The position numbers and the translations under genes are program-made. Shown here piece after piece: positions 1,939 through 32,000 of a DNA stretch of 32,000 bases; the stretch's first letter is position 1; the number at the start of each line of letters is the position of its first letter. This DNA is from Candidatus Saccharimonadota bacterium (GTDB lineage: Bacteria > Patescibacteriota > Saccharimonadia > Saccharimonadales > Saccharimonadaceae). The notes beneath the pieces were generated by a model, which made no database searches, was not told the DNA's origin, and worked only from the letters and a program-made list of their open reading frames with translations. The DNA lies in assembly GCA_001897305.1 (NCBI GenBank), contig MKSO01000001.1, positions 180,001-212,000 of the forward strand, written 5' to 3'.

Positions 1939-1939
1939 T

Positions 1940-7900: not shown

Positions 7901-10900
7901 GGGGCGGTTAATACAATTCAGAACATCGCTACAACGTCGAGCCCAACTTTTGCCGGCCTAACGCTTTCAAGTGCGCTAGGGGTAGCAAATGGCGGTACTG
8001 GGGCTGGAAGTTTTGCAACTAACGGTATTCTCGTTGGACAAGGAACATCCGCTGTAACGACAGTCAGCACTACTACGGCCAACCAGTGTCTTGTTACGGG
8101 AACGGGTGGTGTTCTAACATTTGCAAGTTGTCCTGGTTCGGGCGGCGTCAGTAGCTTTAATGGCCTTACAGGTGCGGTAAATGTTGCGACGACAACCGCA
8201 AGCAGCCTCCTTACAAGTGGCAATACTGTCACTATTCGCGACGCAAGCGATACTATTAAGGGTCTCGCTTCCTTCAATTCAACCAACCTTACCGTCACAA
8301 GTGGCGTCGTAAATACGGTTCAAGATATAAGCACTGCATCTACGCCAACCTTTGCCGGCCTTACCCTAGGTAACGCGCTGAGTGTTGCTAACGGTGGTAC
8401 GGGTCAAACTACCCTCACTGCTAACCGCGTGCTTCTCGGTAATGGTACGTCTGGTGTGGCAGTGAGCAACGCCGCAGGGGCCGGACTTTGTCTTATTGGG
8501 AATGCGACCGGGGCACCAAGCTTCCAATCTTGTCCAATTGGTGGGAATATCTCATCTGGCACCTCTCAGACTGCTGGTGTTGTGGCGATGTTCGATAGTA
8601 CCGCAAACCAAATTACCGACTCAATCATCTCGCAGTCTGGTTCGGTTGTCTCTGTTGGCGGACAACTGAGTGCTACGACACTAAGTGGCAACGGTGCGGC
8701 GATCACTAACCTTAACGCTTCTAATATTGCCACCGGTACTGTTGCAAACGCTCGTCTTAGCGCCAATGTAACACTTCAGGGCAATAGCTTTAACGGTAAC
8801 AGCCAGTTGCTTAAGCTTGATAGCAGCGGTGCAACTACCCAAAACGGCCTTTGTCTTATGAGTACTGGCTCTGGTACGGGTACTGCTTTCCAGGCGTGCC
8901 CAGGTTCAAACGTAGCCGTAGGCGCAAACACTTCGCTGTCTAACCTTTCGAATGTTGCCATTAATGACATGCTTCTTCCGGGCGCGAGCAATTCTATCGA
9001 CATTGGTAGTACCACCTTGGCATTCCGCAACCTTTACTTGGCTGGTGCAGTAAGTGCGGCGGGCGCCATCAACGGCCTCACGCTTACTTCAAACTCGCTA
9101 CAGAGTGCTGGTGCTCTCAACCTTAGTGCGGGTGGAACAAACCAAGCGGTTACAATTGCTGGCAGCGGTAGTGGTGGAGTGACAATTAACCCAGGTACGG
9201 GGAGTATTACGCTCTCGGGCGTAACCTGTAATACCTCTGCTAACGGTGGAAAGCTTACCACTAATGCGTCGGGTATCTTGGGCTGTGCCGATGATATTGG
9301 CGGCGTCTCGGTTGTGGGTACTATTGACTCGCAGACGGCCAGCGCCAACGGTGCGGTTATTAATGGTAATACTATCTATTTGCAGACGGCGAGTTCAACG
9401 GCAACCGGGCTTGTAAGTACGGCTGCCCAAACGTTCGCTGGTAACAAAACATTTGCCGGAGCTACAACACTGCAGGGCGCAACAACAATGAGTGGATCGG
9501 TGACGATTGGCAGTCCATCGATGGGTGTTCTATACACCGATACGAGCGGTACTGTTCAAAAGGCGTATACATCAGGTGCAACGGTAGGTCAGTGCCTAGC
9601 TTATACTGCAACGAATACTCTTGGCTTCCAGAGCTGTGGCGGTGGCGGTGGGGGTGGAAATCCATTCCTTCAAGGCGGTAATGCCTTCAATGCAACAGCA
9701 ACACTCGGTGTGACAGATAACCAGGCGATAAATATTATTCAAAATAATCAAAATCGTATTGCCATGCCAAATGACGGCAACATCATCATAACGCCTATGA
9801 CTAACAAATTCGTTTTCATTAATACAACCGCCTCTGATAGTGATGCTGATTTGATTGTAAATGGTCGCGTTAAGTCATTGACTGGCTTTAAGGTGGGTAA
9901 CGTAAGCGGAATATCTATTGCGCAGTGTAGCGGATACATTCAGAATGCAGTTGTGAGTGGCGGTATTATTACCAATGGTAACTGTTCGAGCGGGGGTTCA
10001 GCGGGTCAGGCTCTTGTACAAGGTGGTAACGCCTTTAATGGGACGCTTACCATGGGAACGACAGACAACTTTGGTGTTAATATCGTAAAACAAGGCACCA
10101 CCATGATCGGTATAAGCCAGGACGGCAACATCGACTTCTCGCCAAGCGTTAATAAGTGGGTCCGTGTCGGCACTACTGATACTGATAGTACGTCACAATT
10201 TATCGTAGGTGGGCGTATCAAGTCGGGCACTGGTTTCAGGGTCGGTAACAATACGGGCATAGATCTTACATGTCAAAATGGTAACCAGACCTTGGGCGCG
10301 GTTCGTATTGCCGGTGGTATTATCTACCAAGCGCAGTGTGCCACCAACAACTCTGACCTTGCCGAGAATTACGCCTCACCACAGCAACTCGCTCCAGCCG
10401 AGATTGTCATGGCTGCTGGTACTTCTGCAACAACAGTGGTTCGCGCCACCGGAGAAGGTGCTCGCGAAAAACTTATGGGCGTTGTTTCGACTAACCCAGG
10501 CCAGACATTAGGTACCGAACAAGTACCAAACGGGTATCCAATTGCCCTAACCGGACGTGTTCCTGTGAAGGTAAACGGCGAGGGTGGCCCTATTGCAGTA
10601 GGTGACAAGGTGACTATCTCGAGTGTTGAAGGTGTCGGTAAGAAAGCTACAACCCCAGGTATGATCGTCGGTACCGCAGTTGAATCATTTGACGGCAACG
10701 GCCAAGGCTCTATTGAGGTCTTTGTAAACCTTATGTACTGGAGCCCTGTGGATGGTAATAACCTGCAGGCTCAGACAGGCACCTTTGGTTCACTAAATGT
10801 ATCTGGTAACACTACTTTGAACACCCTAACAGTTACTGGTGTAGCTACATTCCAGGCAAATATTGTCGTGAACGGACACATTATTACTGGCGGTGGTGCG

Positions 10901-15750: not shown

Positions 15751-15901
15751 TTAGCTCCTAATTTGGTGGCAAGAGGATGGTCTTATATAAGCGACACATT
15801 CCGCAGCCTGAGTTGAGATGGGCGTAGAGACCCCATCGAAACCCAGCGCGAGGACCGTTCGCGTTGTAAGACCATCCTCTTGCCACCAAATTAGGAGTTA
15901 A
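15751..15901. repeat. Long-hairpin element, copy A (shorter, divergent): 31-bp perfect inverted arms around an 81-nt interior
   Basis: The left arm ctcctaatttggtggcaagaggatggtctta (15755-15785) is the exact reverse complement of 15867-15897. Pairing extends 3 bp further after one G/T mismatch. The interior contains TTCCGCAG, ATCGAAACC and GCGAGGAC, which also occur in copies B and C but in a different order. Confidence 0.7.
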
Positions 15902-19755: not shown

Positions 19756-20427
19756 CGACGCGGTGGGCGTGACGCCGACTTTGGCGAGCAGCGGGAGGAG
19801 GGTGTCCTTGCTCAGCTTCTTGTGGTCGTCCTCCGAGATCACCTTCACGGTGGTCTTCGAGATACCCGTCCGGATGTGCTCCTCCTTCATGTTGGCGATG
19901 GCCGTGGCGGTCGTCATGATCAGCGGCTTGATGTCGCTGATCTTGACCATGCCGGTCGGCGCGTCGCCGTTGGTGACCGCGTTCGCGTTGGCGGTGAGCT
20001 CGTCGTTCTTGCGACGCAGCTCGACCAGCTCCTTGGGAACACCGGTGGCATCCAGCTCGCTGTCCTTGATGTAGCCCGGGTGGTCCGGGACGATACCGCG
20101 GGCGACGTAGTTCTTGCGGGCGGGGGGCAGCGAGTCCAGCACGACGCGCAACGCGTCGGTGGGCTCGATCGAGGACGGCGAACTGCTGTCCAGACGAGCC
20201 TGGGTGGCAGCGCGGGTGTCCTCATCGACGAGACCGTCGATGAGCGCGGTGAGCGCGACGGCGATCTTCGGCGAGACGGTTCCGGCCTTCAGCAGGCTCT
20301 GGAGCTTGTTCGACGAGGCGAACAGTTCCAGGCGAGCGTCCGTCACGTTGGCGACGAGCTGCTGCTCGCCGCGCTCGGTGGCTGCGTCGAGCATGTCGAT
20401 GTCGGTGGTCGTGGTGGGAGTGGACAT
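19750..20427 (-). CDS. Hypothetical protein (225 aa) with actinobacterial-type codon usage; function unknown
   Basis: The start is the ATG at 20427, preceded by GAAAGGAA (the 25 codons upstream in the ORF track are probably not translated). Of the first 30 codons, 28 end in G or C, against 11/30 for the neighbouring gene at 20752. The protein has a Thr-rich N-terminus, a short ELVELRRKNDEL helix and an ISEDDHKKLSKDTLLPLLAKVGV tail. I do not recognise the family. Confidence 0.68.
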   Translation of the reverse strand: MSTPTTTTDIDMLDAATERGEQQLVANVTDARLELFASSNKLQSLLKAGTVSPKIAVALTALIDGLVDEDTRAATQARLDSSSPSSIEPTDALRVVLDSLPPARKNYVARGIVPDHPGYIKDSELDATGVPKELVELRRKNDELTANANAVTNGDAPTGMVKISDIKPLIMTTATAIANMKEEHIRTGISKTTVKVISEDDHKKLSKDTLLPLLAKVGVTPTASS

Positions 20428-20528
20428 TGTGTTTCCTTTCGTGGGGCGCGGTGCGCCGGGAGGGGTGAGACAATGTCGACACCTACGGAGGTGCCGACAC
20501 AAGTGTTAAGTTATAAGCTTGTGTGGCA

Positions 20529-20545
20529 TCCTGATGTGACAGGGG
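20529..20545. repeat. Right copy of the inverted repeat bracketing the high-GC gene
   Basis: tcctgatgtgacagggg matches the reverse complement of 19736-19755 at 17/17 positions apart from the 3-nt indel. It is followed directly by a perfect 9-bp hairpin, gtcgtgcga/atgga/tcgcacgac (20547-20569). Confidence 0.7.
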
Positions 20546-20711
20546 TGTCGTGCGAATGGATCGCACGACGTACCAGGGCTTATAAAAGCCACAGTATGTC
20601 GCGCGATCACATTTCACACCTTTTTAATGATCAGCGAGGGTATTGCACCTCACGTATGCATAGGATTATAGCACTTATTTGATTTTTTGTCAATAACCAT
20701 AAACAAATACA

Positions 20712-20740
20712 TTGACTTGCGAGTATAACTTTGCTATAAC
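20712..20740 (+). promoter_or_regulatory. Putative promoter of the 20752 gene
   Basis: TTGACT (20712-20717), a 17-nt spacer, then TATAAC (20735-20740) preceded by TGc. The ATG lies only 11 nt downstream, so the leader is very short or absent. Confidence 0.5.
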
Positions 20741-20751
20741 CAGGGGTAAGT

Positions 20752-22389
20752 ATGGAACTTACCGCTCCAGAACACCAAAATACCTCAAATAACCCAGAAA
20801 CGACCGTTGATAAAGAGGCAGCCCTTGCATACGCATTGGGTATTGATCAAATTGCCGATATGCGCGCTCGGCAGGTTAAAGCTTTTAACCAAGCGTGGGA
20901 AACCGCACAAGAAAATGGGGTAGGTATTGATGATCTGCTTATTGAAGCTAAAAATGCAGCTCGTTTAGTAGGTGATGAATATACTAGTAGCATTGTTGAT
21001 ACTGGTTTTTATGATGATGAAGTAGCAGATAGAGCAAAAGGTATCGTGGAGAAGTACTCTTTTCTTTCTATGTCCGAGCACGAATGGCGTCTTGGTAAAG
21101 TAGACAACGACGGGAATGTAGAGCGAAAAAGTGGGCGAGAACGCTTGAGTGATGATTCAGAAGAACTCTTACAATCTATTCCAGCCGGGGCTTCGCGTAC
21201 AGAAGCAGTTGATCCTTATATCGAAGCCGAACGAAATACGTTAGTACGGCTTCGTGAGGAAGTTGCTAAATTAAGCGCCAAACGCCAAGGTCGCCTATGG
21301 GGCGATGGTGGCGAAGCTTATAGTGAGGCAGTCAAGGCGTATAACGCTCAGGTTGTAAAACTTGGTAGACTCGAGAAAAAAGACATTATAGAAGACGAAA
21401 CCATCTCGGATGTTACTAAAAAAGCCGAGGTTGTCGGCTACCTGTTTCAAGAGCAGAATGAGCTGCGTAAAGCTTCGGTTGAGAAACTTGAAAATACAGC
21501 CGTTTCAAAGTTTGTTGAATTTATGAACAGAGGTAATATTGCTCAGCGAATCGCTAAAGGAGTTGCCTTGGGTGTAGGTGCCTCTGTTATAGCCGCCGGT
21601 GCGGGTGCTGTGATTGGTATCGCTGGCGGTGCTGCCATTGTTGGTGGTGCTACGGCGGGTATTATTGGTGCTGGACGCTTTGCTCGTGGTTTTGCCCGTA
21701 GTGACGCAAAACGTGGTCGCGGCCTGCAAGAACTGAACGATATTAGCCACTTAGAGAAAGCCCAGAATGTAGAAGTTGAGAATGATAACCATTTCGACGC
21801 CATCTTCTCGCATTTTCAAGAAAACTACGAGAAAGACATTGATAAAGAACAGGCTAAGCGACGCCGTTCGGTGATTGCCGGTTTGGGCGGTATCGCTCTT
21901 GGTACTGGAATCGGTGCGGCCGTTGCATTCGCAGCTGATGCCCTCCCTGGTGTAGAAGGTTGGTTCAACAGGGGTCCATCGTTACCATTTGCTGATCAGC
22001 ACGTCGGTGCCGAAGCCGCTCCACAAGATCATGGCGGGTACACTCAGGGTGAAGGCTCCCATGCTGAGACCGGCAGTCCCGACACGGGTCAGACCGGTAG
22101 CGGCGCCGAAGGTGAAGGTAAGACGTTCCTTCCTAACGCTGATACGGCTAACGAAATAGCTCCGACTTTTGACCCTAACTTTGTTATTGATAGTGGCGAG
22201 GGTGGTATTCATTTCTTCCAAGACCTCGGCTTAACCGAGTCTAACTGGTATGAAGTACAGAACGAATTACTACAAAACTATCCTAATGACTTCTACTCGA
22301 TGGGCGATGGTAATGTTGGCCTAGCACACCCCGGCCAACTTTCTCTGGAGGCGCAGCAATTTATTAAGGCGCGCTTTAGTTTACCATAA
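20752..22389 (+). CDS. Hypothetical membrane protein (545 aa) with two glycine-zipper TM regions
   Basis: It has a long helical, charged N-terminal half. The TM regions are GVALGVGASVIAAGAGAVIGIAGGAAIVGGATAGIIGAG and VIAGLGGIALGTGIGAAVAFAA. A G/T/E-rich linker and a C-terminal globular region (IDSGEGGIHFFQDLGL) follow. No family was recognised. Confidence 0.7.
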   Translation: MELTAPEHQNTSNNPETTVDKEAALAYALGIDQIADMRARQVKAFNQAWETAQENGVGIDDLLIEAKNAARLVGDEYTSSIVDTGFYDDEVADRAKGIVEKYSFLSMSEHEWRLGKVDNDGNVERKSGRERLSDDSEELLQSIPAGASRTEAVDPYIEAERNTLVRLREEVAKLSAKRQGRLWGDGGEAYSEAVKAYNAQVVKLGRLEKKDIIEDETISDVTKKAEVVGYLFQEQNELRKASVEKLENTAVSKFVEFMNRGNIAQRIAKGVALGVGASVIAAGAGAVIGIAGGAAIVGGATAGIIGAGRFARGFARSDAKRGRGLQELNDISHLEKAQNVEVENDNHFDAIFSHFQENYEKDIDKEQAKRRRSVIAGLGGIALGTGIGAAVAFAADALPGVEGWFNRGPSLPFADQHVGAEAAPQDHGGYTQGEGSHAETGSPDTGQTGSGAEGEGKTFLPNADTANEIAPTFDPNFVIDSGEGGIHFFQDLGLTESNWYEVQNELLQNYPNDFYSMGDGNVGLAHPGQLSLEAQQFIKARFSLP

Positions 22390-22450
22390 GCAAACTCGAC
22401 CCCTTAGCGGATACTTGATATAATAAAAATAACGTAAACAGGAAAATCAC

Positions 22451-22885
22451 ATGTTTCAACTCGACGACCAATTTTTACAAGATATCGGACTAGCCGAACT
22501 GCCAGAAGAGCAGCGTAAGCCTTTCTTGCAGCACGTCTATGACCAGCTGGAATATCGCGTTGGTGTTCGCCTTAGTGAGGGTATGAGTGATGCTCAATTG
22601 GAAGAGTTCGAAGCGATTATCGACAAAAAGCCCGAGGTGGTCGACGCTTGGGTGGCTCAGTATGCACCAGCTTACCAAAGTGATGAATTATTTACTAAAA
22701 TTCAAACCGCCAGCGGGCTTGCCACTGAAGACCCGCTTGTAAAGTCGGAATACGCTGCTACTAAATGGCTCGAAGTGAACCGCCCAGACTATCGCGATGT
22801 GGTTGCGAAAACACTTGAAGAGTTGAAGCAAGAAATTATCCAAAACCGCGATGCGATTTTGGGTACCGCACCAGCAGCTCAATAA
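22451..22885 (+). CDS. Conserved hypothetical cytoplasmic protein (144 aa; resembles the DUF5663-type FL.D.GL..LPEE.K..FL.H.Y..LE.RVG family)
   Basis: Extended -10 TGATATAAT at 22416-22424 and an AGGAAAA Shine-Dalgarno sequence. The N-terminal motif is MFQLDDQFLQDIGLAELPEEQRKPFLQHVYDQLEYRVGVRLSEGMSDAQLEEFE. The family assignment is from memory only. Confidence 0.55.
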   Translation: MFQLDDQFLQDIGLAELPEEQRKPFLQHVYDQLEYRVGVRLSEGMSDAQLEEFEAIIDKKPEVVDAWVAQYAPAYQSDELFTKIQTASGLATEDPLVKSEYAATKWLEVNRPDYRDVVAKTLEELKQEIIQNRDAILGTAPAAQ

Positions 22886-22888
22886 TTA

Positions 22889-23911
22889 CTAGATAAACAA
22901 ATCTTTAAGCAAATGTCCGTAGCCGTTGACGAAGTCACGGGCGGACATTTCTTTTTTACCGGCTGGCTGTAGGCGGGTGATTTGATAGTAGGTTTGTAGA
23001 CCCCGGCTATCTAGGCCAGCCGTTACGTAAAGCAACGGGTAGTCCTGATCATCTTTTAATTTGAGCTGCTCGCCATCAATAAAAGCCGTGCCCGGAACGC
23101 TTGATTCTTGGCGAACTGGGTATACCATTGTTCCATCGGCGATGCGCACCGTGATGCCGGCTATCTCAGTTGAGCTGCCGGGCCAGCCGCGATAGGCAGT
23201 AATTTCTGCAGCAATGCGCTCAACTGGTTTGCTCCAGTCTATGATGCCGTCTTGCTTGGTAATCATGTGGCAGTAGGTAGCCTGTGAATCATCTTGCGCA
23301 ACGGCTGGAATCTCGCCTGAAATAATACCCGGTAGTGTCTCTATAAGCATTTCGACGCCAAGTAAGCCGAGGCTGGTGTAAAGGTTTTCTTTAACGTCCG
23401 ATAAACCATGCAGATCACGGTATTTATCAAGATCGATTGTTTTCTGGGCATAGATTGGACCGGCGTCCATTTCGGCGGAGAGCTTCATAATGGTTACCCC
23501 AGCTTCAGCGTCGTTATTAAGAATAGTCGTTTCAATAGGCGAAGGGCCGCGGTATCTCGGTAGCAACGAGGGGTGAATATTAATAATACCAGGGTCAAAT
23601 AGATCAAGTGTTGATTGAGGAATAATACGCCCGAAACTAACCAGTACACCTATAACAGGTTGTAGGGCTTTGATCTTATCAGTAATCTCGCTTAGCTTAG
23701 AAGGTTGCCACACTTCTATGTCGTGCTCTTCGGCAAACGTTTTAACCGGCGGGGCGATGGTTTTCTTGCCGCGACCTTTTGTCAGGTCTGGTTTTGTAAC
23801 GACCGCTGCGATTGGATACTTTGCTTCAATGAGTTTTTTCAAAACCAGCAGACTCAATTCCTCGGTTCCAAAAAAGATGATAGGGCGAGAGATTGCGGCT
23901 TTGGTTACCAT
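22889..23911 (-). CDS. fmt: Methionyl-tRNA formyltransferase
   Basis: IIFFGT..., VVTKPD...GRG, and NIHPSLLPRYRGPSPI (the formyltransferase catalytic motif), followed by the C-terminal OB-like domain. The start is set at the ATG at 23911, 2 nt after the def stop and preceded by GGAG. The GTG at 23926 is an alternative. Confidence 0.92.
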   Translation of the reverse strand: MVTKAAISRPIIFFGTEELSLLVLKKLIEAKYPIAAVVTKPDLTKGRGKKTIAPPVKTFAEEHDIEVWQPSKLSEITDKIKALQPVIGVLVSFGRIIPQSTLDLFDPGIINIHPSLLPRYRGPSPIETTILNNDAEAGVTIMKLSAEMDAGPIYAQKTIDLDKYRDLHGLSDVKENLYTSLGLLGVEMLIETLPGIISGEIPAVAQDDSQATYCHMITKQDGIIDWSKPVERIAAEITAYRGWPGSSTEIAGITVRIADGTMVYPVRQESSVPGTAFIDGEQLKLKDDQDYPLLYVTAGLDSRGLQTYYQITRLQPAGKKEMSARDFVNGYGHLLKDLFI

Positions 23912-23913
23912 AC

Positions 23914-24492
23914 CTATTCGCTCCACAGAACGGGGCTGTCTTTGATGTGCTCGTCATAATTAAGCGGCACTAATTCGCCCTTCTCGTTGAGAGTGTAGAA
24001 AGCGCCGGTACTATCTTTAATATGGTCAATAAATACGATGCCGTTGGTGTGGTCGATTTCGTGTTGAATAACGCGTGCTAAAAAGCCATCGGCTTTAAAA
24101 CGTACTTCTTGGCCATCAATGTTGAGAGCGCGAACCCGGATTTTACTATAGCGGGGAACTTTACCGTAAATGTCTTTTACACTTAGGCAGCCTTCGTAGT
24201 CTTCGACTAATTCGCCTTCATACTTAACGATTTCTGGGTTAATAAGAGCGGTAAAATCATTATTTGCTTTATCGTCAAAGTCACTGCGAACAATAACGAC
24301 ACGCGACAGGCGGTCCACTTGAACAGCCGCCAAGGCAGCACTAATTTCGTGTGGGCGAGAGGCCTCCCAGTCAATTGCAGCCGCGGTCATATCCTTGATG
24401 AGAGCGAGTGTCGCGTCATCAATACTTTGTATTTTGTCGGATTTTGTACGCAAATGCGGGTTGGGCAGGGTGATAATATCGTCTTTAGTCAT
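23914..24492 (-). CDS. def: Peptide deformylase
   Basis: All three signature motifs are present: ..ALAAVQV (G.AA.Q-like), EGCLS and QHEIDH. Confidence 0.94.
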   Translation of the reverse strand: MTKDDIITLPNPHLRTKSDKIQSIDDATLALIKDMTAAAIDWEASRPHEISAALAAVQVDRLSRVVIVRSDFDDKANNDFTALINPEIVKYEGELVEDYEGCLSVKDIYGKVPRYSKIRVRALNIDGQEVRFKADGFLARVIQHEIDHTNGIVFIDHIKDSTGAFYTLNEKGELVPLNYDEHIKDSPVLWSE

Positions 24493-24499
24493 TGGCCAT

Positions 24500-24508
24500 A
24501 GTATATCA
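24500..24508 (-). promoter_or_regulatory. Extended -10 (TGATATACT on the minus strand) 7 nt upstream of the def ATG; leaderless-type promoter
   Basis: The minus strand reads TGA-TATACT-atggcca-ATG(def). Confidence 0.5.
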
Positions 24509-24519
24509 GAGGTAGCGGT

Positions 24520-24709
24520 GAGGCGGAAGAGGCGGCCGGAGCTCGAGCATAGCGCTTTGATGAAACCTAGCTATCGAACGGCGACTTCTTGGCGGAGCGA
24601 GGACTGTCTGAGCGCAGCGAGTTCCGCAGATCCCCAAGAAGGAGCCGAGATACAGGTAAGGCTTGAATCAACCGCGCTATGCTCGAGCTCCGGCCGCCTC
24701 TTCCGCCTC
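24520..24709 (+). repeat. Long-hairpin element, copy B: 36-bp perfect inverted arms, 118-nt structured interior and a 34-nt conserved core (core in + orientation)
   Basis: The arm gaggcggaagaggcggccggagctcgagcatagcgc (24520-24555) is the exact reverse complement of 24674-24709. Inner pairings are cttcttgg(24585-92)/ccaagaag(24634-41), cggc(24579-82)/gccg(24644-47) and tatc(24572-75)/gata(24649-52). The core agcgaggactgtctgagcgcagcgagttccgcag (24596-24629) matches the reverse complement of 28267-28300 at 34/34 positions. Confidence 0.85.
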
Positions 24710-24718
24710 TGCTACAAT
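24710..24718 (+). promoter_or_regulatory. Extended -10 (TGCTACAAT) 6 nt upstream of the ATG at 24725; leaderless-type promoter
   Basis: TGC-TACAAT-aggtat-ATG. It begins at the nucleotide immediately after the right arm of element B. Confidence 0.55.
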
Positions 24719-24724
24719 AGGTAT

Positions 24725-25273
24725 ATGAAGCAATTGACTAAAGACCAGTTTGATAGCTTGCTGCAAACGGCGGTGATTCGGCCGAAAATTCGTCGCGAGG
24801 TTCGATTCGCGAACGTTGCTCAGTTGGATGAGGCTACTTGGCTGCATACCGAGGTTCTTGCTGTTCCCGATAGATCTGGAAACAAAGGAGTGCTTTTGTT
24901 GAAAGCAACCGAGAATGCCTTATATGTGGCTAGTTATGAACTAAAGAGGGGGATGACCAGCAGCACAGGCAAAGCTCAGCCGATCATTTGTGATTTCTGT
25001 CGCACGTGGCAAACGGGCACTCGAGCGGGCAGTATTACGCTTGATAAGCCCGGCCGCGCCAACGGTTCGGTGACGTTTTTATGTTGCGCTGACCTCGCCT
25101 GTAGCCAGCATGTTCGAAGCCTGACTTCGGCGGCTCGTACGTCACGATCTCAGCTTCGCGAGGACATGACAAATGAAGAGCGGATAGCCCGGCTTGAACA
25201 ACGTATCAACGAGCTCGCCCAGGTTGTAGAGTTAGTAGCGTATACTGGAGAGTATGCGAATACGGAAAAGTAA
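24725..25273 (+). CDS. FBP (FusB-like, EF-G-binding) domain protein with a C-terminal treble-clef zinc finger (182 aa)
   Basis: ICDFCRTWQ...GSITLDKPGRANGSVTFLCCADLACSQHVR matches my recollection of the FBP_C pattern (CxxC ... G..iCaDLaCs..vR). The start is set at ATG 24725, because the upstream 110 codons of the 292-aa ORF run through the palindromic element B. Confidence 0.68.
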   Translation: MKQLTKDQFDSLLQTAVIRPKIRREVRFANVAQLDEATWLHTEVLAVPDRSGNKGVLLLKATENALYVASYELKRGMTSSTGKAQPIICDFCRTWQTGTRAGSITLDKPGRANGSVTFLCCADLACSQHVRSLTSAARTSRSQLREDMTNEERIARLEQRINELAQVVELVAYTGEYANTEK

Positions 25274-25286
25274 GGAAAGGTTTGCT

Positions 25287-26225
25287 ATGCCACCATCACC
25301 AGTATCAACACCATCTTCACGAAAAAAACCACTTGTCATCGGACTAATTGTCGCCGGCGCGCTTCTTCTTATCGCGGCGATTGTCATTCCAATCGTTCAA
25401 GTTAACCGGGCGAATCAAGCCGCATCTACCTACCGTAGTGACGTAAAAGATACGGTGTCGCAATTACTTGCCTCGAATACGCCTAAGCGTCGTGTCGAGT
25501 TGGTTGAAAAGCCACCAGTGCTGCAGCCTATTTGGTTAGGTGAGCAACTGTCCGGAAAGTATCGAGATGCCCAAGCGCTTGAGGCTCGTTACAAGAAATT
25601 AACAGATGACAACATCTCGGTATTTAAATTTATTTACGCGTTTGAAACTCTTAGTGGAAACGAAAAAGATAGCTTCTTCCCACGTTTAACAGCGACACTG
25701 CAAACAGAAGTGCCGCCATTTAGCTACCGTGTTGACACCGAAGCACAAAAGGCCGGTTCTAAAGCCTATGTCGATGCTGCCAATAAGCAAGCGCAGGCCT
25801 ACACGGCACTCGCTGACGAGATGAAGGGGTACGTTCTTCCTGATGCAGCCAAAGAGCCGCAACAACGGATGTACACTGCCCTCATGGCTATGGCGAACGA
25901 GAAAACTGCTCAGGCTACAAAGCAAAAAGACTACACTGAGAAAGCCGAAAAAGGCGAGATTGATGAGAATGGCATGGAGAAGCAGGCTACTCAAAAATCG
26001 TACACAGATAATTTACTTGATACGCTTGATGCATTTAGCTCACAGCTGTACTCATTAAGTACGTCGGTGAGTGGAGATATTTCCCTAGATGCATATCCAG
26101 AGGTTCGTGCTGCCACTAAGGCGCTCGTAGAACCATTTACGCGCACCGATGTTCAGCAGTGGATTGTCGACACAACTCAAAAGACGCAAAATGATTACAC
26201 GGCATTTTCAGATTCGTTGAAGTAA
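25287..26225 (+). CDS. Membrane-anchored hypothetical protein (312 aa), helical and charged ectodomain
   Basis: AAGGAAAGG Shine-Dalgarno sequence 7 nt before ATG 25287. One TM helix (LVIGLIVAGALLLIAAIVIPIV). The rest is K/E/Q/A-rich, with no recognised motif. Confidence 0.65.
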   Translation: MPPSPVSTPSSRKKPLVIGLIVAGALLLIAAIVIPIVQVNRANQAASTYRSDVKDTVSQLLASNTPKRRVELVEKPPVLQPIWLGEQLSGKYRDAQALEARYKKLTDDNISVFKFIYAFETLSGNEKDSFFPRLTATLQTEVPPFSYRVDTEAQKAGSKAYVDAANKQAQAYTALADEMKGYVLPDAAKEPQQRMYTALMAMANEKTAQATKQKDYTEKAEKGEIDENGMEKQATQKSYTDNLLDTLDAFSSQLYSLSTSVSGDISLDAYPEVRAATKALVEPFTRTDVQQWIVDTTQKTQNDYTAFSDSLK

Positions 26226-26228
26226 TAG

Positions 26229-28169
26229 TTAAAGAAGACTTGTGGGGTCCAATTCACTTTGCCAGTGCGTTGGCGGGACAGCGTCAAGTGCTTGGACGAG
26301 CACATCTCTTTTAGGGCTTTTGAGCGTCAGCTGCCAACGATACGTATCGTGTTGTCGTTCATAAAAGGCCGGCGTCGGCCCCAGTACCTCGACGCCTCGA
26401 GGCAGGCGAGACCGGAGTGTACGGGAAAGTTGTTGGGCATTACGAACAGCGGCTGCTTCGCTTTTGTATACGTCGGTAAGTTGGAGTAAATAGCGAAAAG
26501 GCGGAAAGCCTGCCTTTTGACGTTCGGAAAGCGCATATGAGTAGAAGCCCTCATAATCTTGCTTGACGCCATATTGGATGACGGGGTGAGTCGGTTGGTA
26601 GGACTGTACCACCACACTTGTGGCCCGTTCGTCACGCCCCACGCGACCTACAACCTGGGCAATTAACTGAAAGGCGCGTTCGCTGGCGGCATAGTCGGGG
26701 AGGGCTAACCCACTGTCTGCCTGGATAATACCAACCGTACGTAACTTGGGGAGATCAAGACCTTTAGCGACAACCTGGGTACCGATAGCTATATCGATAG
26801 TACCGTTGTAAAGGTCGGTGTAGCGTTCGTTGACCGTTTCGTGAGTGGCGTTATCACCGTCGAAGCGGGCAATTTTTGCTTTAGGAAATAGGCGTTGTAA
26901 TTCGCTTTCGATGAGCTTTGTGCCAATACCTTTGTGAATAATCTGTGAAGCATGGCAAACGGGGCATGAAGTAGGCACTTTTGTTTTGTAGTCACAAATA
27001 TGACAGCTGAGACTGAAAGAGTCGGTATGGAGTACTAACGGCACAAAACAGCGGGGGCATTCGGCGGTCCAGCCACAGTTTTCGCACAGCGTAGTACTGG
27101 CACTGCCGCGACGGTTATGAAAAAGAAGAGTTTGCTGGCCAGATGCAATATTGTGTTCGATTTCGCTAATAAGTGTGTCCGATAGAAAGCGATGATGTTT
27201 GAATGCTTCGCGTTTTTTCATATCAACGACATGCACAGTGGTAGGAGTGGCATTGCTACGAGCTGGCTTTGGGAGTGTGACGATAGGGGAGTTGGTGGTC
27301 TCTGCGATGTAGCGATCGGTGATCAGCGGGGTCGCGCTTCCTAATACTACCCGGGCCTTCGCAGCTCTACCCAGTACCCCGGCGGCCCTGAGGGCAGAGT
27401 AGCGCGGAGCCTGCTCTTGCTTATAGCTTGGTTCATGAGCTTCGTCTACTAGTATGGCGCCAAGTTGGTAAGCTGGCATAAATAGGGCGGAGCGAGGCCC
27501 GATAATAACAGTTGGCTCGCTAGCATGGAGTACTTTTTGCCACGCAAGGTGTCGCTCGGCTTCTGTCATATGAGAATGAGTTACGATCGTATGATTGAAC
27601 TCATGAATAAACTCGTCGACAACTTGGCTGGTGAGTCCAATTTCTGGCACAAGAATAATAACCGACTTGCCGTCGGCGATGGTGCGGCGAGTTATTTCTT
27701 TGTACACTTCGGTTTTTCCAGACCCTGTTACCCCTTGAAGTAGGGTGGTGCCAGATGGTTGAGCCATAATTTTTTTCACAGCTTCAGTCTGATCATCATT
27801 GAGTACAATAGTTGTTCGATTACGGGTTGAGACATGCGGTTGGACTTCTTTGCTGCGTCGCTTTTTTGTCAGTCCGCGGGGCAGGACAGTCTGGAGTACG
27901 GTTGCAAGCGGTGTGTGATAATAGTCAGCTAGCCAGAGCGAAAGCTCAACCAGTGACTGGGGAAGGGCCGTTGTCTCGATGACTCCATCAATCGGTTTCG
28001 TTTCGTAGGCTGGTTTCGAAACAGGCTTTATAACAAGCCCTGTAAGTTGTTGCTTGCCAACCGGGATTAATACCAGGTAACCAACAGATAATTGCTGATT
28101 ACTGTGATATGTAAAGGTATTCGCGTTGCTGCGAACAATCTTAGTTGGGGCAACCTCATAAAACCACAT
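26229..28169 (-). CDS. priA: Primosomal protein N' (replication-restart helicase PriA)
   Basis: Walker A GVTGSGKTEVY, the DEAH box LVDEAHE, the internal Cys-rich zinc region CENCGW..CPRC...CHIC...CPVC, and C-terminal helicase motifs (QVVGRVGR). Confidence 0.95.
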   Translation of the reverse strand: MWFYEVAPTKIVRSNANTFTYHSNQQLSVGYLVLIPVGKQQLTGLVIKPVSKPAYETKPIDGVIETTALPQSLVELSLWLADYYHTPLATVLQTVLPRGLTKKRRSKEVQPHVSTRNRTTIVLNDDQTEAVKKIMAQPSGTTLLQGVTGSGKTEVYKEITRRTIADGKSVIILVPEIGLTSQVVDEFIHEFNHTIVTHSHMTEAERHLAWQKVLHASEPTVIIGPRSALFMPAYQLGAILVDEAHEPSYKQEQAPRYSALRAAGVLGRAAKARVVLGSATPLITDRYIAETTNSPIVTLPKPARSNATPTTVHVVDMKKREAFKHHRFLSDTLISEIEHNIASGQQTLLFHNRRGSASTTLCENCGWTAECPRCFVPLVLHTDSFSLSCHICDYKTKVPTSCPVCHASQIIHKGIGTKLIESELQRLFPKAKIARFDGDNATHETVNERYTDLYNGTIDIAIGTQVVAKGLDLPKLRTVGIIQADSGLALPDYAASERAFQLIAQVVGRVGRDERATSVVVQSYQPTHPVIQYGVKQDYEGFYSYALSERQKAGFPPFRYLLQLTDVYKSEAAAVRNAQQLSRTLRSRLPRGVEVLGPTPAFYERQHDTYRWQLTLKSPKRDVLVQALDAVPPTHWQSELDPTSLL

Positions 28170-28175
28170 ATATTT

Positions 28176-28184
28176 AGTATAGCA
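28176..28184 (-). promoter_or_regulatory. Extended -10 (TGCTATACT on the minus strand) 6 nt upstream of the priA ATG; leaderless-type promoter
   Basis: The minus strand reads TGC-TATACT-aaatat-ATG(priA). It is separated from the left arm of element C by 1 nt. Confidence 0.55.
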
Positions 28185-28185
28185 G

Positions 28186-28376
28186 TGAGCGTAAGGAGGC
28201 GGAGCGAGACTTTTTATATGCAGTTACCTCAAGCCTTGAGTGGCTGCGTGTTTTCTTCTTGAGACGCTGCGGAACTCGCTGCGCTCAGACAGTCCTCGCT
28301 TCGTCAGGAAGAAAACGCTTGCCACTCAGGTTTCGATAAAGCATATAAAAAGTCTCGCTCCGCCTCCTTACGCTCA
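28186..28376 (-). repeat. Long-hairpin element, copy C: 36-bp perfect inverted arms, 119-nt structured interior, with the same 34-nt core in the opposite orientation to copy B
   Basis: The arm tgagcgtaaggaggcggagcgagactttttatatgc (28186-28221) is the exact reverse complement of 28341-28376. Inner pairings are gagtggc(28238-44)/gccactc(28321-27), gttttcttc(28250-58)/gaagaaaac(28308-16) and gacg(28263-66)/cgtc(28302-05). The core lies at 28267-28300. The junction motifs TTTATCGAAACCT and AAGGCTTGA are shared with copy B. Confidence 0.85.
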
Positions 28377-28385
28377 TGCTACAAT
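28377..28385 (+). promoter_or_regulatory. Extended -10 (TGCTACAAT) 6 nt upstream of the ATG at 28392; leaderless-type promoter
   Basis: TGC-TACAAT-aaccat-ATG. It begins at the nucleotide immediately after the right arm of element C. Confidence 0.55.
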
Positions 28386-28391
28386 AACCAT

Positions 28392-29048
28392 ATGTATTTT
28401 GAGAGCCGAATTCAGGCTGGCCAGCAGTTAGCCCAGCAGCTTTTTGAGAAATATCGCTACGAAAACTGCGCCATTATTGCTTTAAGTGATGGCGGTGTTT
28501 TGGTAGGGGAGCAAATTGCCACGCAGCTTCACTGTATTTTAACGATGCTTTTAGTAGAAGATATTCCGGTGCCGGGTGAAAGTGTTAGCTTTGGCGGCGT
28601 GTCCCAAACGGGGCAATTCACGTATAACAGCGAGTTTTCTAGTGGGGAAATTGATGAGTATGCAACTGAGTTTCACGGCTACCTAGAAGAGCAAAAACGT
28701 GAGGCTTTCCAGCGCATCAATCGGCTTATTGGTGATGGCGGCTTAATTGATCGCGATTTGCTACGTGACCATACAATTATATTAGTGAACGATGGCTTCG
28801 CTGATACGACCGTTCTGGACGTAGCGCTCGATTTCCTTAAGCCGATACGTATTAATAGGCTTATTATTGCCGCGCCAGTTGCATCCGAGCAAGCGGTCGA
28901 CCGTTTGCACGTAGTGGCTGACGAGTTGCACATTCTTGATGTAAAGACGAATTTTTTCGATACCGACCATTACTATACCGACAATACAATTCCTACGCAC
29001 GAAGAGACGATCGATAAAATTAATAAGATTATCCTGAATTGGCGTTGA
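28392..29048 (+). CDS. Phosphoribosyltransferase-family protein (218 aa)
   Basis: The N-terminal F..R..AG..LA..L pattern and the hydrophobic-strand-plus-acidic loop TIILVNDGFADTTV resemble the PRPP-binding motif of type I PRTases, although the loop is degenerate (no TG). Confidence 0.7.
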   Translation: MYFESRIQAGQQLAQQLFEKYRYENCAIIALSDGGVLVGEQIATQLHCILTMLLVEDIPVPGESVSFGGVSQTGQFTYNSEFSSGEIDEYATEFHGYLEEQKREAFQRINRLIGDGGLIDRDLLRDHTIILVNDGFADTTVLDVALDFLKPIRINRLIIAAPVASEQAVDRLHVVADELHILDVKTNFFDTDHYYTDNTIPTHEETIDKINKIILNWR

Positions 29049-29118
29049 CCTAGCTAGTAAGGAAAGTGTAGAATAAAACTCAACAGGTTCTGAGAGGCCA
29101 AAGTTTAAAAGGGGAAGC

Positions 29119-29421
29119 ATGTTAGACGTTTTTATTACATCTCGGGTGCGACGCAAGATCGTTGTTGTGTATGCCAAGTATCCCGATTTTCGCACGCACG
29201 TACGAGGCCTTGCGAAACTCATTAAAGAAGATCCAGGTAACATTCAGCGTGAGTTAAAGCGCCTTGAAAAAGTAGGCTTTCTTCTTAGCGAGCGACAGGG
29301 GAACACGAAAATTTATGCAACCAACAAACAATTCCCAATCTTTAAAGAGCTCCAAAGTATTGTTATTAAGTCTCAGCAACAAGCAGCTCGCCCAAAACGT
29401 ACCTCAACTGACGTTGCGTAA
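29119..29421 (+). CDS. Small winged-helix DNA-binding protein (ArsR/MarR-like, 100 aa)
   Basis: AGGGGAAG Shine-Dalgarno sequence. ...VRGLAKLIKEDPGNIQRELKRLEKVGFLLSERQGNTKIY... has the helix-turn-helix-plus-wing pattern. The tail is basic. Confidence 0.68.
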   Translation: MLDVFITSRVRRKIVVVYAKYPDFRTHVRGLAKLIKEDPGNIQRELKRLEKVGFLLSERQGNTKIYATNKQFPIFKELQSIVIKSQQQAARPKRTSTDVA

Positions 29422-29445
29422 GCGCGTAGCTTGCAGGGGTAGTGT

Positions 29446-31131
29446 ATGAATCTTTTTGACCGCATTTTAGAGGCTCGAGGTATTACCGGCCCGACAAAGG
29501 CGGTTTTTCTTTCGCCGCAGTACGATGCTAGGCATGATCCGTTCTTGTTACCAGATATGGAAGCATCTGTGGAAAGGCTTGTGCAGGCGCATGATCGCCA
29601 AGAGCGGATTACTATTTATGGTGATTATGATATTGATGGACTCACTGCCACAACGGTGCTTCTTGATGCGCTTAATAGTTTTGGGTTTGAACGGGTAAAG
29701 GCATTTATTCCTAACCGTTTTACCGAAGGCTACGGGCTTACGATTGATGCAATCGAGCGTATCGCAGCGCAAGGAGCTGACCTTATTATCACCGTAGACT
29801 GTGGGAGCCTGAGTCATGCAGAGATTACTCGCGCTAAAGAACTGGGCGTTGATGTTATCGTGACGGATCACCACAATGTTGCACCTCAGCAGCCTCCAGC
29901 TGTGGCGGTTATTAATCCGAAAAGATTACTACAAGATCATCCTGACGAATACGAAAACTACTTGCTTAAGCCAAGTTCAGCCTTTAAGGGGAAGATTTAT
30001 CCGTTTCTTGACCTACCTGGAGTGGGCGTGGCATTTAAGTTGGTGCAAGCCTTGCAGAGCCGTTTGACGGGTTTAGAGCCCGGCCAAGAGAAGTGGTTGC
30101 TTGACCTTGTGGCGCTGGGTACTGTCTGCGATGTCGTCACGCTGGTTGATGAAAATCGTACCCATGTATTTTGGGGCTTGAAAGTGTTGTCCAAGACGCG
30201 CCGCGCTGGCCTTAAAGCCTTAATGGCGGTGGCAGGGGTGCGACAGCAGGCTGTTGATGCTCGCAGCCTTGGGTTTGCCCTGGGGCCGCGTATGAATGCC
30301 GCCGGACGCCTAGAAACGGCGCAATACGCGCTGGATATGCTCACTGCCACCGACCCAATGGAGGCCTTGCAGTACGCTCGCCAACTTGATGAGATGAACC
30401 AAGCCCGCCGTCGCGAGCAAGATGTTATTTTAAAGGAGGCGCTTATTCAGGCTGAGACATTCAAAGATGACCCAGTGTTAGTGGTTGCCTCCGAAGGGTG
30501 GAATCACGGCATTGTAGGTATTGTAGCTGCTAAATTGCTTGAACGATACCAAAAACCGACCTTCGTATTAGCTATTCATGATGACGAGGCCAAAGGCTCG
30601 GCTCGCAGTTACGGTGACTTTAGCGCGGCAGATGCAATTCGATCGGCCGATTCCATTATTACTAAGGGCGGCGGCCATAAGCTGGCGGCTGGCGTAACAG
30701 TACCAGCTTCTCGTATTGATGATTTTCGAGCCCAAGTGAACGCTTTTTATAAACAGCAAAACCTTCGCGAGCAAGCGCAACTATTACTTCCTTCGGCAGA
30801 TACTGATGCCCACTTAGAAGAAGTAACAGAAGAGTTGATTGCTGCTATAGCAACACTTGAGCCTTTTGGTAACGGTAATCCACAGCCAGTACTACGGACC
30901 GAACCGCTTATGGTAAGGGGAGTTCGTCGTATGGGCGACAGTGGCCAGCATATAAAATTGACACTTCAGAGTGACACGGGCAACTCTATTGATGTCGTGG
31001 CATTTAATGCACCGGACTATTTCTTTGTTGAGCAAGGCGTAAGTATTAGGGTGTGGTATGCCCCTGAACTCAACGAATGGCAAGGACGTCGTAGGGTAGA
31101 GGGGCGCCTGCTGCACCTTGAGGTGGTTTGA
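29446..31131 (+). CDS. recJ: Single-stranded-DNA-specific exonuclease RecJ
   Basis: DHH-family motifs occur in order: IYGDYDIDGLTA, ITVDCG, VTDHH and GH..AAG (DHHA1), followed by a C-terminal OB-like domain. Confidence 0.94.
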   Translation: MNLFDRILEARGITGPTKAVFLSPQYDARHDPFLLPDMEASVERLVQAHDRQERITIYGDYDIDGLTATTVLLDALNSFGFERVKAFIPNRFTEGYGLTIDAIERIAAQGADLIITVDCGSLSHAEITRAKELGVDVIVTDHHNVAPQQPPAVAVINPKRLLQDHPDEYENYLLKPSSAFKGKIYPFLDLPGVGVAFKLVQALQSRLTGLEPGQEKWLLDLVALGTVCDVVTLVDENRTHVFWGLKVLSKTRRAGLKALMAVAGVRQQAVDARSLGFALGPRMNAAGRLETAQYALDMLTATDPMEALQYARQLDEMNQARRREQDVILKEALIQAETFKDDPVLVVASEGWNHGIVGIVAAKLLERYQKPTFVLAIHDDEAKGSARSYGDFSAADAIRSADSIITKGGGHKLAAGVTVPASRIDDFRAQVNAFYKQQNLREQAQLLLPSADTDAHLEEVTEELIAAIATLEPFGNGNPQPVLRTEPLMVRGVRRMGDSGQHIKLTLQSDTGNSIDVVAFNAPDYFFVEQGVSIRVWYAPELNEWQGRRRVEGRLLHLEVV

Positions 31132-31164
31132 AAGCCTGCGCAACTTATGCTTAACTAGGTGGTA

Positions 31165-31992
31165 ATGAAACAGTGGGCAACAGCAAAATCAACAGGCTTT
31201 ACTATCGTCGAACTTCTTATTGTGGTGGTAGTTATCGCTATCTTAGCGGCTATTACACTTATTTCGTATAACGGTATTAAGGACAGGGCCGTAGCAGTGC
31301 AGGTCGAGGCTGGTTTGTCGGAAGCGAATAAAAAAGTACAGCTATATGCAGCTGACCCTGCAAATAATGGCAACTACCCAGCGACATTGGCGGATGCCGG
31401 AGTAACCGACACGAAAAGCGTCACGTATCAATATACTGTTGATACAACAGTTACCCCGGCCTCGTACCTTATAACTGCTTCAAATGGTATTGCGGGCACA
31501 ACTACTTACTATATGGGGAGCGACGTTTCGAGCCCGGTTGTAGGCACGGCACCGGGCCATAACCTTATGCCGTGGAATAAACCAGATAGTGCTAGCGCAC
31601 CGGTTAAGTTGAGCAGTTCGGTGGTGGTTGATACTTCGGTATATCGTACTTCGACCTCCTCGGTTAGGATCGGAACGAATTCAAGTGGGAATCTTTTACG
31701 TTCATCACCGTTTTCGGGTAGTGCAGGGCAAACCTATACGGTCAGCCTTTGGATAAAAACAGATTCTAACTGGAATGGTACAGGAGATAACTCAAAGATT
31801 CGCTTTGGGAATAACGATGGTACGGGAGCACTTTTGCAAGCCTGTGGTTACAGTGGCGTAAAGACGAGTTGGACCCAAGTTACGTGCTCGTACACCCTGA
31901 CGAGTACCTCAACTTCAGTGTCGATTAGTGTGGGTAATAATGGTACAGTGGGTACTATTTGGCTTGATGACGTAAGTGTGTCGTTGAAGTAA
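31165..31992 (+). CDS. Type IV pilin-like protein with a C-terminal carbohydrate-binding-module-like (jelly-roll) domain (275 aa)
   Basis: The prepilin leader and cleavage/methylation motif is ..KSTG/FTIVELLIVVVVIAILAAI (Glu at +5). The C-terminal ~140 aa (..VYRTSTSSVRIG.., GQTYTVSLWIKTD.., TSWTQVTCSYT.., GTIWLDDVSVSL) resemble CBM4/9-type lectin folds. The GTG at 31159 is an alternative start. Confidence 0.82.
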   Translation: MKQWATAKSTGFTIVELLIVVVVIAILAAITLISYNGIKDRAVAVQVEAGLSEANKKVQLYAADPANNGNYPATLADAGVTDTKSVTYQYTVDTTVTPASYLITASNGIAGTTTYYMGSDVSSPVVGTAPGHNLMPWNKPDSASAPVKLSSSVVVDTSVYRTSTSSVRIGTNSSGNLLRSSPFSGSAGQTYTVSLWIKTDSNWNGTGDNSKIRFGNNDGTGALLQACGYSGVKTSWTQVTCSYTLTSTSTSVSISVGNNGTVGTIWLDDVSVSLK

Positions 31993-32000
31993 GTTCTTCA

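Follow-up and report, generated by a model that had tools for sequence, protein, structure and literature searches.

Two hairpin elements, designated B and C and located in a stretch of 32,000 nucleotides (hereafter the window) from a Candidatus Saccharimonadota bacterium (contig MKSO01000001.1, positions 180,001 to 212,000), are two old paralogous copies of one widespread, apparently uncatalogued hairpin element. Selection acts on one strand of this element, the core-sense strand, to fold on itself as RNA or single-stranded DNA (ssDNA). The stems are probably kept paired mainly by the compensatory evolution of this folded strand, with occasional recombination between the arms, and the perfect but sequence-divergent arms of 36 bp, which an earlier note on this DNA had attributed to a DNA-level process or to the need for a perfect duplex of defined length, would thus have a mostly ordinary cause. 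The family spans Saccharibacteria, gut Firmicutes and Bacteroidota, sponge-symbiont Nitrospirota and Gammaproteobacteria, Spirochaetota, Fusobacteriota and the plant pathogen Ralstonia, and is absent from both Rfam and the searchable literature.

Structure of Elements B and C

The inverted-repeat search assigns to each element two arms of 36 nt which are 100% complementary, in agreement with the earlier note. Both elements are predicted to fold as a single long rod, with a minimum free energy (MFE) of -143.8 kcal/mol for B (z = -14.7) and of -132.2 for C (z = -16.5), none of 200 shuffles being as good in either case. Read on the + strand for B and on the - strand for C, they align end to end as homologous rod hairpins of ~190 nt, with interiors ~75% identical and an identical apical core of 29 nt, GGACTGTCTGAGCGCAGCGAGTTCCGCAG, which is found exactly twice in the window. 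The arms of B and C are also similar, their global alignment score being matched by 0.3% of shuffles (p = 0.003), so that the homology formerly proposed for the arms of all the copies stands for this pair.

From the outside to the inside, the rod comprises a long outer helix formed by the arms, a subtype-specific internal loop, a variable middle helix and, in its innermost part, a nearly invariant apical stem-loop, CUGUCUGAGCGCAGCGAGUU, together with its closing helix. In B, the apical core contains a small stem-loop (CUG-AGCG-CAG) within an asymmetric internal loop. The helices of both elements resume past the 36 bp after a small bulge and reach the flanking -10 boxes, while their inner helices contain G·U pairs and mismatches. 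The coordinates of the elements and of the adjoining features are collected in Table 1.

Table 1. Hairpin elements of the window, their parts and the adjoining promoter boxes (A2, alignment of nine copies of the Saccharibacteria subtype)
Feature	Positions	Strand	Basis or remark
Element A, hairpin of another family, without the core of B and C	15751..15901	+	inverted-repeat search, folding
Extended -10 box TGATATACT of def	24500..24508	-	11 nt from B left arm
Element B, 190-nt rod-like hairpin, core-sense strand +	24520..24709	+	inverted-repeat search, folding
B left arm, 36 nt	24520..24555	+	outer 12 nt GAGGCGGAAGAG kept in orthologues; inner 24 nt allele-specific
5' internal-loop motif TTTGATGAAACCT, conserved, Saccharibacteria subtype	24556..24568	+	invariant columns, alignment A2
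B apical core GCGA-GGACTGTCTGAGCGCAGCGAGTTCCGCAG	24597..24629	+	nearly invariant across phyla
3' internal-loop motif AAGGCTTGAATCAACC, conserved	24658..24673	+	alignment A2
B right arm, perfect complement of B left arm	24674..24709	+	inverted-repeat search
Extended -10 box TGCTACAAT, touching B	24710..24718	+	ATG 6 nt on (leaderless gene)
Extended -10 box TGCTATACT of priA	28176..28184	-	1 nt from C
Element C, 191-nt rod-like hairpin, paralogue of B, core-sense strand -	28186..28376	-	alignment, folding
C arm, 36 nt (3' arm on sense strand)	28186..28221	-	inverted-repeat search
C apical core, identical to B core	28267..28299	-	sequence match
C arm, 36 nt (5' arm on sense strand)	28341..28376	-	sole arm carrying the two A>G changes of L120
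Extended -10 box TGCTACAAT, touching C	28377..28385	+	

Covariation and Strand Specificity of the Fold

The nine copies of alignment A2 share a consensus rod of 67 pairs, in which 92.4% of the cells are paired versus 70.5% in shuffles and ~40% with the partners slid, and in which 46 of the 67 pairs have changed on both sides; none of 500 shuffles reaches the observed values. The imperfect pairs tell the two strands apart, since a constraint at the duplex level predicts equal numbers of G·U and A·C pairs, and an excess of G·U therefore means that one specific strand folds. On the core-sense strand, G·U exceeds A·C by 26 to 8 in alignment A2 (binomial p = 0.003), by 34 to 3 in 11 gammaproteobacterial copies (p = 1e-7) and by 252 to 69 in 85 individually folded copies (p = 1e-25). 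Both covariation and strand-specific wobble are thus found, as in a generic structured single-stranded nucleic acid under purifying selection. Similarly, the core variants in two loci (L112 and L191) are C>U changes which preserve wobble pairs. In the Ralstonia orthologues, each arm shows several compensated changes, with rare G·U, one A·C and one mismatch.

The length of the perfect helix is far from fixed in the family. Same-subtype copies elsewhere in Saccharibacteria have 27-28 perfect pairs broken by bulges or mismatches, and outside the lineage of the window the longest perfect run covers 3-31 pairs. Members whose arms contain G·U or mismatches and vary in length, which according to the earlier note would fit ordinary RNA-structure selection or neutral decay, are thus numerous.

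Variation of the Arms among Sister Strains

Orthologous loci, retrieved through homologues of PriA, range from 100% to about 75% nucleotide identity to the window. Four strains match the window exactly at the C site, and others exhibit changes confined to one arm, the second observation that the note had named as favouring ordinary selection or decay. In strain L120, which has 99.0% identity to the window, two A-U pairs have become G·U through A>G changes restricted to a single arm; in L121 (95.2%), the opposite arm has undergone CTC>TCT, with two G·U and one A·C as the result. In L112 (93.5%) a further C>T (G·U), a transversion creating a mismatch and an insertion occur, while L242 (99.8%) has a 1-nt deletion in an arm and L123 (99.7%) a G>A in the middle helix. 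Altogether, the one-arm changes in strains 93.5-99.8% identical to the window comprise ~8 of the G·U type, 2 of the A·C type and 2-3 others, and the single-arm intermediates that the note proposed to look for in sister strains do exist. In the more distant L113 (~81%), only a 16-bp hairpin is left at the C site, with a former inner arm as its loop.

At the B site, five strains possess the window-type allele, L112 and L120 a second allele and L113 a third one. The orthology of these three alleles follows from their common outer 12 bp and B-specific loop motifs. They show ~14 differences among the inner 24 (or 22) arm positions, each complete allele being perfect over 36 bp, 36 bp (L112) or 34 bp (L113), which bears out the expectation that both arms change together. 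In L113, the whole segment between the outer arms is inverted relative to the window. In L121, a loss has removed the centre along with the inner portion of one arm, and the outer arm displays a compensated G>A / C>T change. A further strain, L115, has the element at neither the B nor the C site. The residual forms of L121 (B site) and L113 (C site) are independent derivatives with the same asymmetric organization, which may be written S-X-S': the outer arms are paired, one former inner arm serves as loop, and the centre together with the partner inner arm is gone. Such a product would not be expected from symmetric hairpin bypass.

The distribution of the B alleles does not follow the overall relatedness of the strains. 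L120 is 99% identical to the window overall yet carries the L112-type allele, and the B island differs between the window and L112 by 52 nucleotides in about 165. Compared with L112, L120 and L121, positions 20229-31998 of the window show a mosaic divergence, from 0 to 20-27 differences per 100 nt, which indicates frequent short-patch recombination among diverged Saccharibacteria lineages. In view of this mosaic alignment, the B island may be an old allele moved by recombination; a hypermutation of B was rejected, as other patches of 20-27% divergence match it and imported old alleles are at least as likely.

These data bear on the possibility that the perfect arms are due mainly to DNA-level templating, with gene conversion or template switching copying changes from arm to arm and RNA structure playing a secondary role. 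The inverted centre of B between sister species means that the arms recombine, and in another phylum (the MT5bin.1 genome described below) the hairpin is flipped with respect to its flanks. Moreover, four alleles (three of B and one of C) have 34-36 perfect pairs devoid of G·U next to imperfect inner helices, so that the arms of the window lineage are indeed cleaner than the inner helices, as formerly stated, and cleaner than the family average; and 36 bp lies slightly above the minimal length usually quoted for RecA-dependent recombination. However, the one-arm changes persist in the close relatives L120, L121, L112 and L242, left and right arm variants are sometimes mismatched between the copies of MT5bin.1, and templating would erase the conserved asymmetric internal loops and the imperfect apex. 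The predominance of G·U over A·C on the core-sense strand is predicted by folded-strand selection and not by conversion at the duplex level. Templating is thus unlikely as the main cause, and only a part of the DNA-level process proposed in the note survives: the flipped centre, taken with the clean arms, suggests an added DNA-level contribution to arm perfection.

A second explanation holds that the transcript has to offer a perfect duplex of ~36 bp to an enzyme or binder specific for double-stranded RNA (dsRNA), such as RNase III, and that G·U pairs are purged accordingly. It would account for the cleaner arms and for the 36 perfect pairs occurring in both paralogues of the window and in the L112 allele of B, and the only weak matches in Rfam are eukaryotic miRNA-precursor hairpins, a resemblance of shape only. 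Nevertheless, the rule of exactly 36 bp is broken as soon as the orthologues are considered, since arm lengths of 34-36 bp invalidate any argument from a fixed length. Arms with G·U pairs occur in strains 99% identical to the window, the stems of a gut Firmicute and of Microsaccharimonas are G·U-rich and bulged, and, more generally, the length and perfection of the duplex vary among the members from the 34 bp of the L113 allele to the short or interrupted runs mentioned above. On grounds of length and perfection, a fixed-length substrate was therefore rejected, and this second explanation is very improbable.

Distribution of the Family and Forms of the Unit

A scan of one genome per species, using the core as query with the tetraloop left free, identified the core in 111 genome stretches distributed among Gamma-, Beta- and Alphaproteobacteria, Nitrospirales, Bacteroidota, Lachnospiraceae (Bacillota), Spirochaetota, Desulfobulbia (Desulfobacterota) and Saccharibacteria. 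All the genome matches to the exact core are metagenome-assembled genomes (MAGs), and the phylum count (at least eight) is approximate because some bins seem cross-contaminated, e.g., L029, which is similar to the Nitrospirales copies, and L102, which equals a Barnesiella locus. The core also occurs in at least 118 stretches of a metagenome scan, including human gut, sediment and ocean, whereas variants of it were detected by BLAST against plasmids in two cultured bacteria, in 70 Ralstonia megaplasmids and in Ilyobacter polytropus. No match was found in the E. coli genomes searched for the element, nor any among 2.9 million viral contigs scanned for the core, and phages were consequently rejected as vectors of its spread. 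Searches of the literature by sequence and keyword retrieved no relevant paper, and the core sequence appears in none of the papers of the searchable library.

In every case, the core occupies the apex of the hairpin, and the stems of different lineages are unrelated and follow the base composition of their surroundings. The most invariant piece of the family is CUGUCUGAGCG(C/U)AGCGAGUU, the closing helix of which varies, e.g., GGAC/GUUCC, GGGGGC/GCCCCC or UCGA/UCGA. A tip of ~20-29 bases is thus common to the phyla concerned, cultured Ralstonia included. In this respect, the conservation across phyla of a motif of 20-29 nt devoid of any linked gene would imply a conserved, unnamed partner, and Ralstonia, as a cultured and genetically tractable host, offers the means to find it.

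Many copies outside Saccharibacteria are longer, the unit of Nitrospirales reaching ~245 nt. In this long unit, the rod is succeeded by two more hairpins, the first of them with a repeated YTTTYTTTGG in front and the other small and terminating in CGAAAC. Conservation of this form extends from Fusobacteriota to Nitrospirota, but B and C lack it; it was seen at L244 (positions 1466-1660, Ralstonia GMI1000 megaplasmid), L014, L016, L094, L082 and L245. The megaplasmid of Ralstonia pseudosolanacearum GMI1000 (NC_003296.1) has two units in the interval from glgB to glgX, at about 302.6-303.1 kb. A pyrimidine tract, CTTTCTTTG, appears twice after the rod, and the second tract pairs with CAAAGAAAG; this duplication would permit an alternative pairing in the long form.

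Depending on the genome, the element occurs as a single copy or in many copies. MT5bin.1, a Pseudomonadales MAG, contains at least 26 copies, many of them located at the ends of contigs; an Arenicellales MAG contains at least 14. In MT5bin.1 (L009, L027, L046, L069, L076, L090, L100), the hairpin resides inside a larger repeat with ends resembling terminal inverted repeats (TIRs; CTAGAGTTTAGAGTTTCAG...), in both orientations relative to the flanks of this larger unit, and is thus a passenger there, since the larger unit has TIR-like ends of its own. The mismatched arm variants of this genome look as if they had been shuffled among paralogues. Conversely, one gut Firmicute species (a subset of L128-L237, 23 contigs of human gut metagenomes) has a single copy at a conserved locus beside radical-SAM and purH-like genes. 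Its core is 1 nt shorter (GGATGTCTG...). At least three unrelated sequences are found upstream of the hairpin, and all of them end in an A/T-rich -10-like box just in front of it.

With respect to gene context, 17 of 48 copies lie between convergent, 28 between co-directional and 3 between divergent genes. Among the close pairs, with 200-375 nt between the copies, 22 are head-to-head (-,+), 3 are tandem (+,+) and none is (+,-), an arrangement which is strongly non-random and recalls the doublets of repetitive extragenic palindromic (REP) sequences or divergently transcribed units. Such pairs were seen at L002, L005, L040, L051, L079, L080, L098, L106, L129, L148, L165, L166, L176, L193, L201, L203, L204, L208, L212, L219 and L221, as well as in Ralstonia (L244). 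An all-against-all comparison of the open reading frames (ORFs) located within 2-2.5 kb of ~230 copies disclosed no recurrent neighbour protein; apart from one orthologous gut locus, it yielded nothing but generic families (ABC ATPases, two-component proteins), and a linked protein or an autonomous element was rejected on this basis. Two copies separated by 4.3 kb have ordinary dehydrogenase genes between them.

A third explanation views the element as mobile DNA akin to miniature inverted-repeat transposable elements (MITEs) or REPINs, moved as ssDNA by a trans-acting HUH/Y1 enzyme that would recognize the apical hairpin; the arms would then be perfect because the copies are young or because target DNA supplied the arms at insertion. 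The large numbers of copies in some genomes, the variable presence of the element at orthologous sites, the enrichment at convergent and co-directional gene ends, like that of REPs and MITEs, and the 22:0 ratio of head-to-head over (+,-) pairs, as in REP doublets, are consistent with this view, as are the two S-X-S' forms of L121 and L113, each retaining one inner arm as a loop. On the other hand, neither conserved termini nor a target-site duplication or target motif can be seen, no transposase is linked to the ~230 copies compared, viral contigs lack the core, and B and C are old, judging from their interiors, yet still perfect. In addition, the B copies of three species are orthologous by their B-specific motifs, so that the S-X-S' forms are better read as deletions. 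Mobility of this type is accordingly considered improbable.

Proposed Mechanism and Points against It

According to the explanation favoured here, compensatory evolution of the folded core-sense strand, mutations in the stems are tolerated as G·U intermediates and later compensated, a process by which the arms of copies and of orthologues diverge while staying paired. The folded strand would most likely be a transcript, ssDNA exposed during replication or DNA uptake being the alternative, and the invariant tip would represent a putative recognition site for a factor encoded away from the element. Perfect inverted repeats of 34-36 bp may occasionally recombine and thereby flip the centre, and gene conversion between the arms may polish them, which would explain why arms are cleaner than inner helices in the window lineage. 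The 36/36 state of the sequenced strain would then represent the upper end of a continuum rather than a fixed specification.

Several observations weigh against this explanation. Among the 142 arm pairs of the four alleles, neither a G·U pair nor a mismatch occurs, versus ~6% of G·U family-wide; with arms cleaner than the family average, compensation alone may be insufficient. The B alleles differ at 14 of 24 arm positions though the adjacent flanks are identical between the genomes, a pattern which needs either old alleles shuffled by recombination or a faster evolution of the element. B and C are flanked by neither a canonical -35/-10 promoter nor an intrinsic terminator, and a fold of RNA is indistinguishable from one of ssDNA by sequence alone. 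Finally, the identity of the core across phyla, combined with its patchy distribution, is left unexplained.

A more ambitious and less probable reading, which is put forward tentatively, would see in the family a class of structured RNA (or of ssDNA signal) that is new and extends across phyla, the invariant 20-nt motif of the apex being the ligand of a conserved cellular factor, and the stems, once past the minimal recombination length, becoming self-homogenising and flip-flopping, so that selection at the RNA level and conversion of the arms at the DNA level would operate jointly.

Comparison with Known Systems

No Rfam 15 family reaches its gathering score in the window, and the same collection gave only an unrelated Alpha_RBS match for 12 loci from other phyla. 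Permissive scans of B and of the Nitrospira, Methylotenera, Ralstonia and Ilyobacter copies returned only sub-threshold generic matches to the miRNA-precursor hairpins. To our knowledge, and as judged by eye, none of the following motifs fits: the hammerhead (CUGAUGA...GAAAC), domain IV of the signal recognition particle (SRP) RNA, 6S RNA, the K-turn, the sarcin-ricin loop, domain V of group II introns, the LexA box, the Tn3 terminal repeat, the DNA uptake sequence (DUS) of Neisseria and the integron R box.

The REP, BIME and REPIN elements, which RAYT (TnpA-REP) mobilises, resemble the element in many respects: they are intergenic, non-coding hairpins present in one to many copies with an enrichment at gene 3' ends, they often form head-to-head doublets, undergo bursts of copy number in some genomes and show compensatory stem changes, and a strand-specific structure would be expected if the element were used as ssDNA. 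Here, 22 of the 25 close pairs are head-to-head doublets, and no tyrosine-transposase-like gene recurs in the neighbourhoods compared. However, REPs measure 20-40 nt, are species-specific, carry a 5' GTAG and keep their conserved part in the stem, whereas the stems of the element are free to vary, its tip of 20-29 nt is nearly identical across phyla and no RAYT is seen near the copies.

MITEs, ERIC/IRU sequences and the Correia elements of Neisseria are likewise small non-autonomous repeats of ~100-200 bp forming long hairpins between genes, with a conserved central inverted repeat in the case of ERIC. MITEs differ by their conserved terminal inverted repeats and target-site duplications, and an assignment to them was rejected because the termini of the element, which are its most variable part, differ between all the independent copies and no direct repeat flanks them.

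The 6S and SRP 4.5S RNAs are rods of ~100-200 nt with covarying stems and a conserved apical or internal feature bound by a universal protein. They are, however, single-copy, essential and endowed with known motifs (a central bubble and the GNRA loop of domain IV, respectively), whereas the element is multi-copy in some genomes, patchily distributed and matched by no Rfam model. More specifically, 6S RNA was rejected on account of the lack of a large bubble in the predicted and consensus structures, the presence of two copies within 4 kb in the window and of more than 25 elsewhere, and the absence of any Rfam 6S match.

Integron attC sites also fold as single strands, with a structure conserved while the sequence varies. 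Their conserved parts are the hairpin base (R''/R' GTTRRRY) and extrahelical bases, and their variable part is the tip, whereas in the element the situation is reversed, the neighbours are housekeeping genes and no integrase is nearby; attC was thus rejected. The inverted repeats of plastid genomes, which flip-flop, and the palindromes of Y chromosomes share with the element identical repeat copies that diverge between lineages and an enclosed segment that inverts. These systems are kilobases long and quasipalindrome events are single templated mutations, as opposed to arms of 34-36 bp; in the element, one-arm variants persist and pairing statistics are strand-asymmetric. A retron msr-msd was rejected in the absence of a reverse transcriptase or another recurrent protein beside the copies, and a guide or spacer hairpin because the arms are unmatched elsewhere in the window and their segments of 20-21 nt unmatched in the 2.9 million viral contigs.

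Genomic Setting in the Window

Element B lies between the divergent genes def (-) and an FBP_C-domain gene (+), and C between the divergent genes priA (-) and a phosphoribosyltransferase gene (+). A third hairpin, A, lies in the only other divergent intergenic region of the window, so that none of the three is free of a hairpin. Of the six element sides, five are adjoined by extended -10 boxes (TGnTAnnnT), i.e., both sides of B, both of C and the left of A. Such boxes were observed at 11872, 15736(-), 24508(-), 24710, 28184(-) and 28377, five of the six adjoining a hairpin element. Each of them is followed 6-7 nt downstream by the start codon of a long ORF without any Shine-Dalgarno sequence, hence the designation of these genes as leaderless; transcription units of this kind seem to be frequent in the genome. 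In this small genome, the position of B and C exactly between the -10 boxes of divergent leaderless genes is probably due to the fact that no other dispensable DNA occurs there; a role as promoter or insulator was rejected, the divergent context being the rarest one in the family.

The homologues of PriA bear the names Candidatus Saccharibacteria or Microsaccharimonas, and two metagenome contigs are 100% identical to the window across 10.3 kb. In compact genomes of the candidate phyla radiation (CPR), the elements produce both assembly breaks and annotation artefacts, in which ORFs are extended through the hairpin. Contigs ending inside elements include L120, L242 and many from MT5bin.1. Gene calls that run through the hairpins give 260-263 instead of 192 amino acids (aa) for def and 251-292 instead of 182 aa for the FBP_C-domain gene; overextended calls occur at positions 24395-25273 of the window, 9474-10256 of L112, 7240-8031 of L121 and 7397-8152 of L119.

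Element A, a Hairpin of a Different Family

The third hairpin is a member of a family separate from that of B and C. It lacks the core sequence, and its arms display no significant similarity to those of B or C (p = 0.24-0.54, shuffled controls), so that the homology claimed for the arms of all three copies does not extend to A. The inverted-repeat search gives arms of 35 nt (15751-15785 and 15867-15901) at 97% complementarity, the helix consisting of 31 perfect pairs followed by G15754:T15898 and by 3 more pairs. The statement that no copy contains a G:T pair is therefore right for B and C, and holds for A only if the helix is cut after the 31 pairs. The predicted fold has an MFE of -100 (z = -13.4), with none of 200 shuffles as good. 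The inner motifs of the A family read GCAGCCYGAG ... TCGAAMCCCRG.GCGA. A reading of A as a circular permutation of the B/C element, based on the common TTCCGCAG and GCGAGGAC, was dropped as too weak.

In a related genome (L117), A-like elements are present at both the B and the C sites, at about 5860-5990 and 8490-8640, in opposite orientations. Two distinct hairpin families thus fill the same orthologous divergent-promoter gaps in different species.

Finally, no tRNA was found in the window, and positions 1931-11203 are occupied by an ORF of 3090 aa with at least 11 diverged copies of a 402-nt (134-aa) repeat, which probably encodes a giant surface protein.

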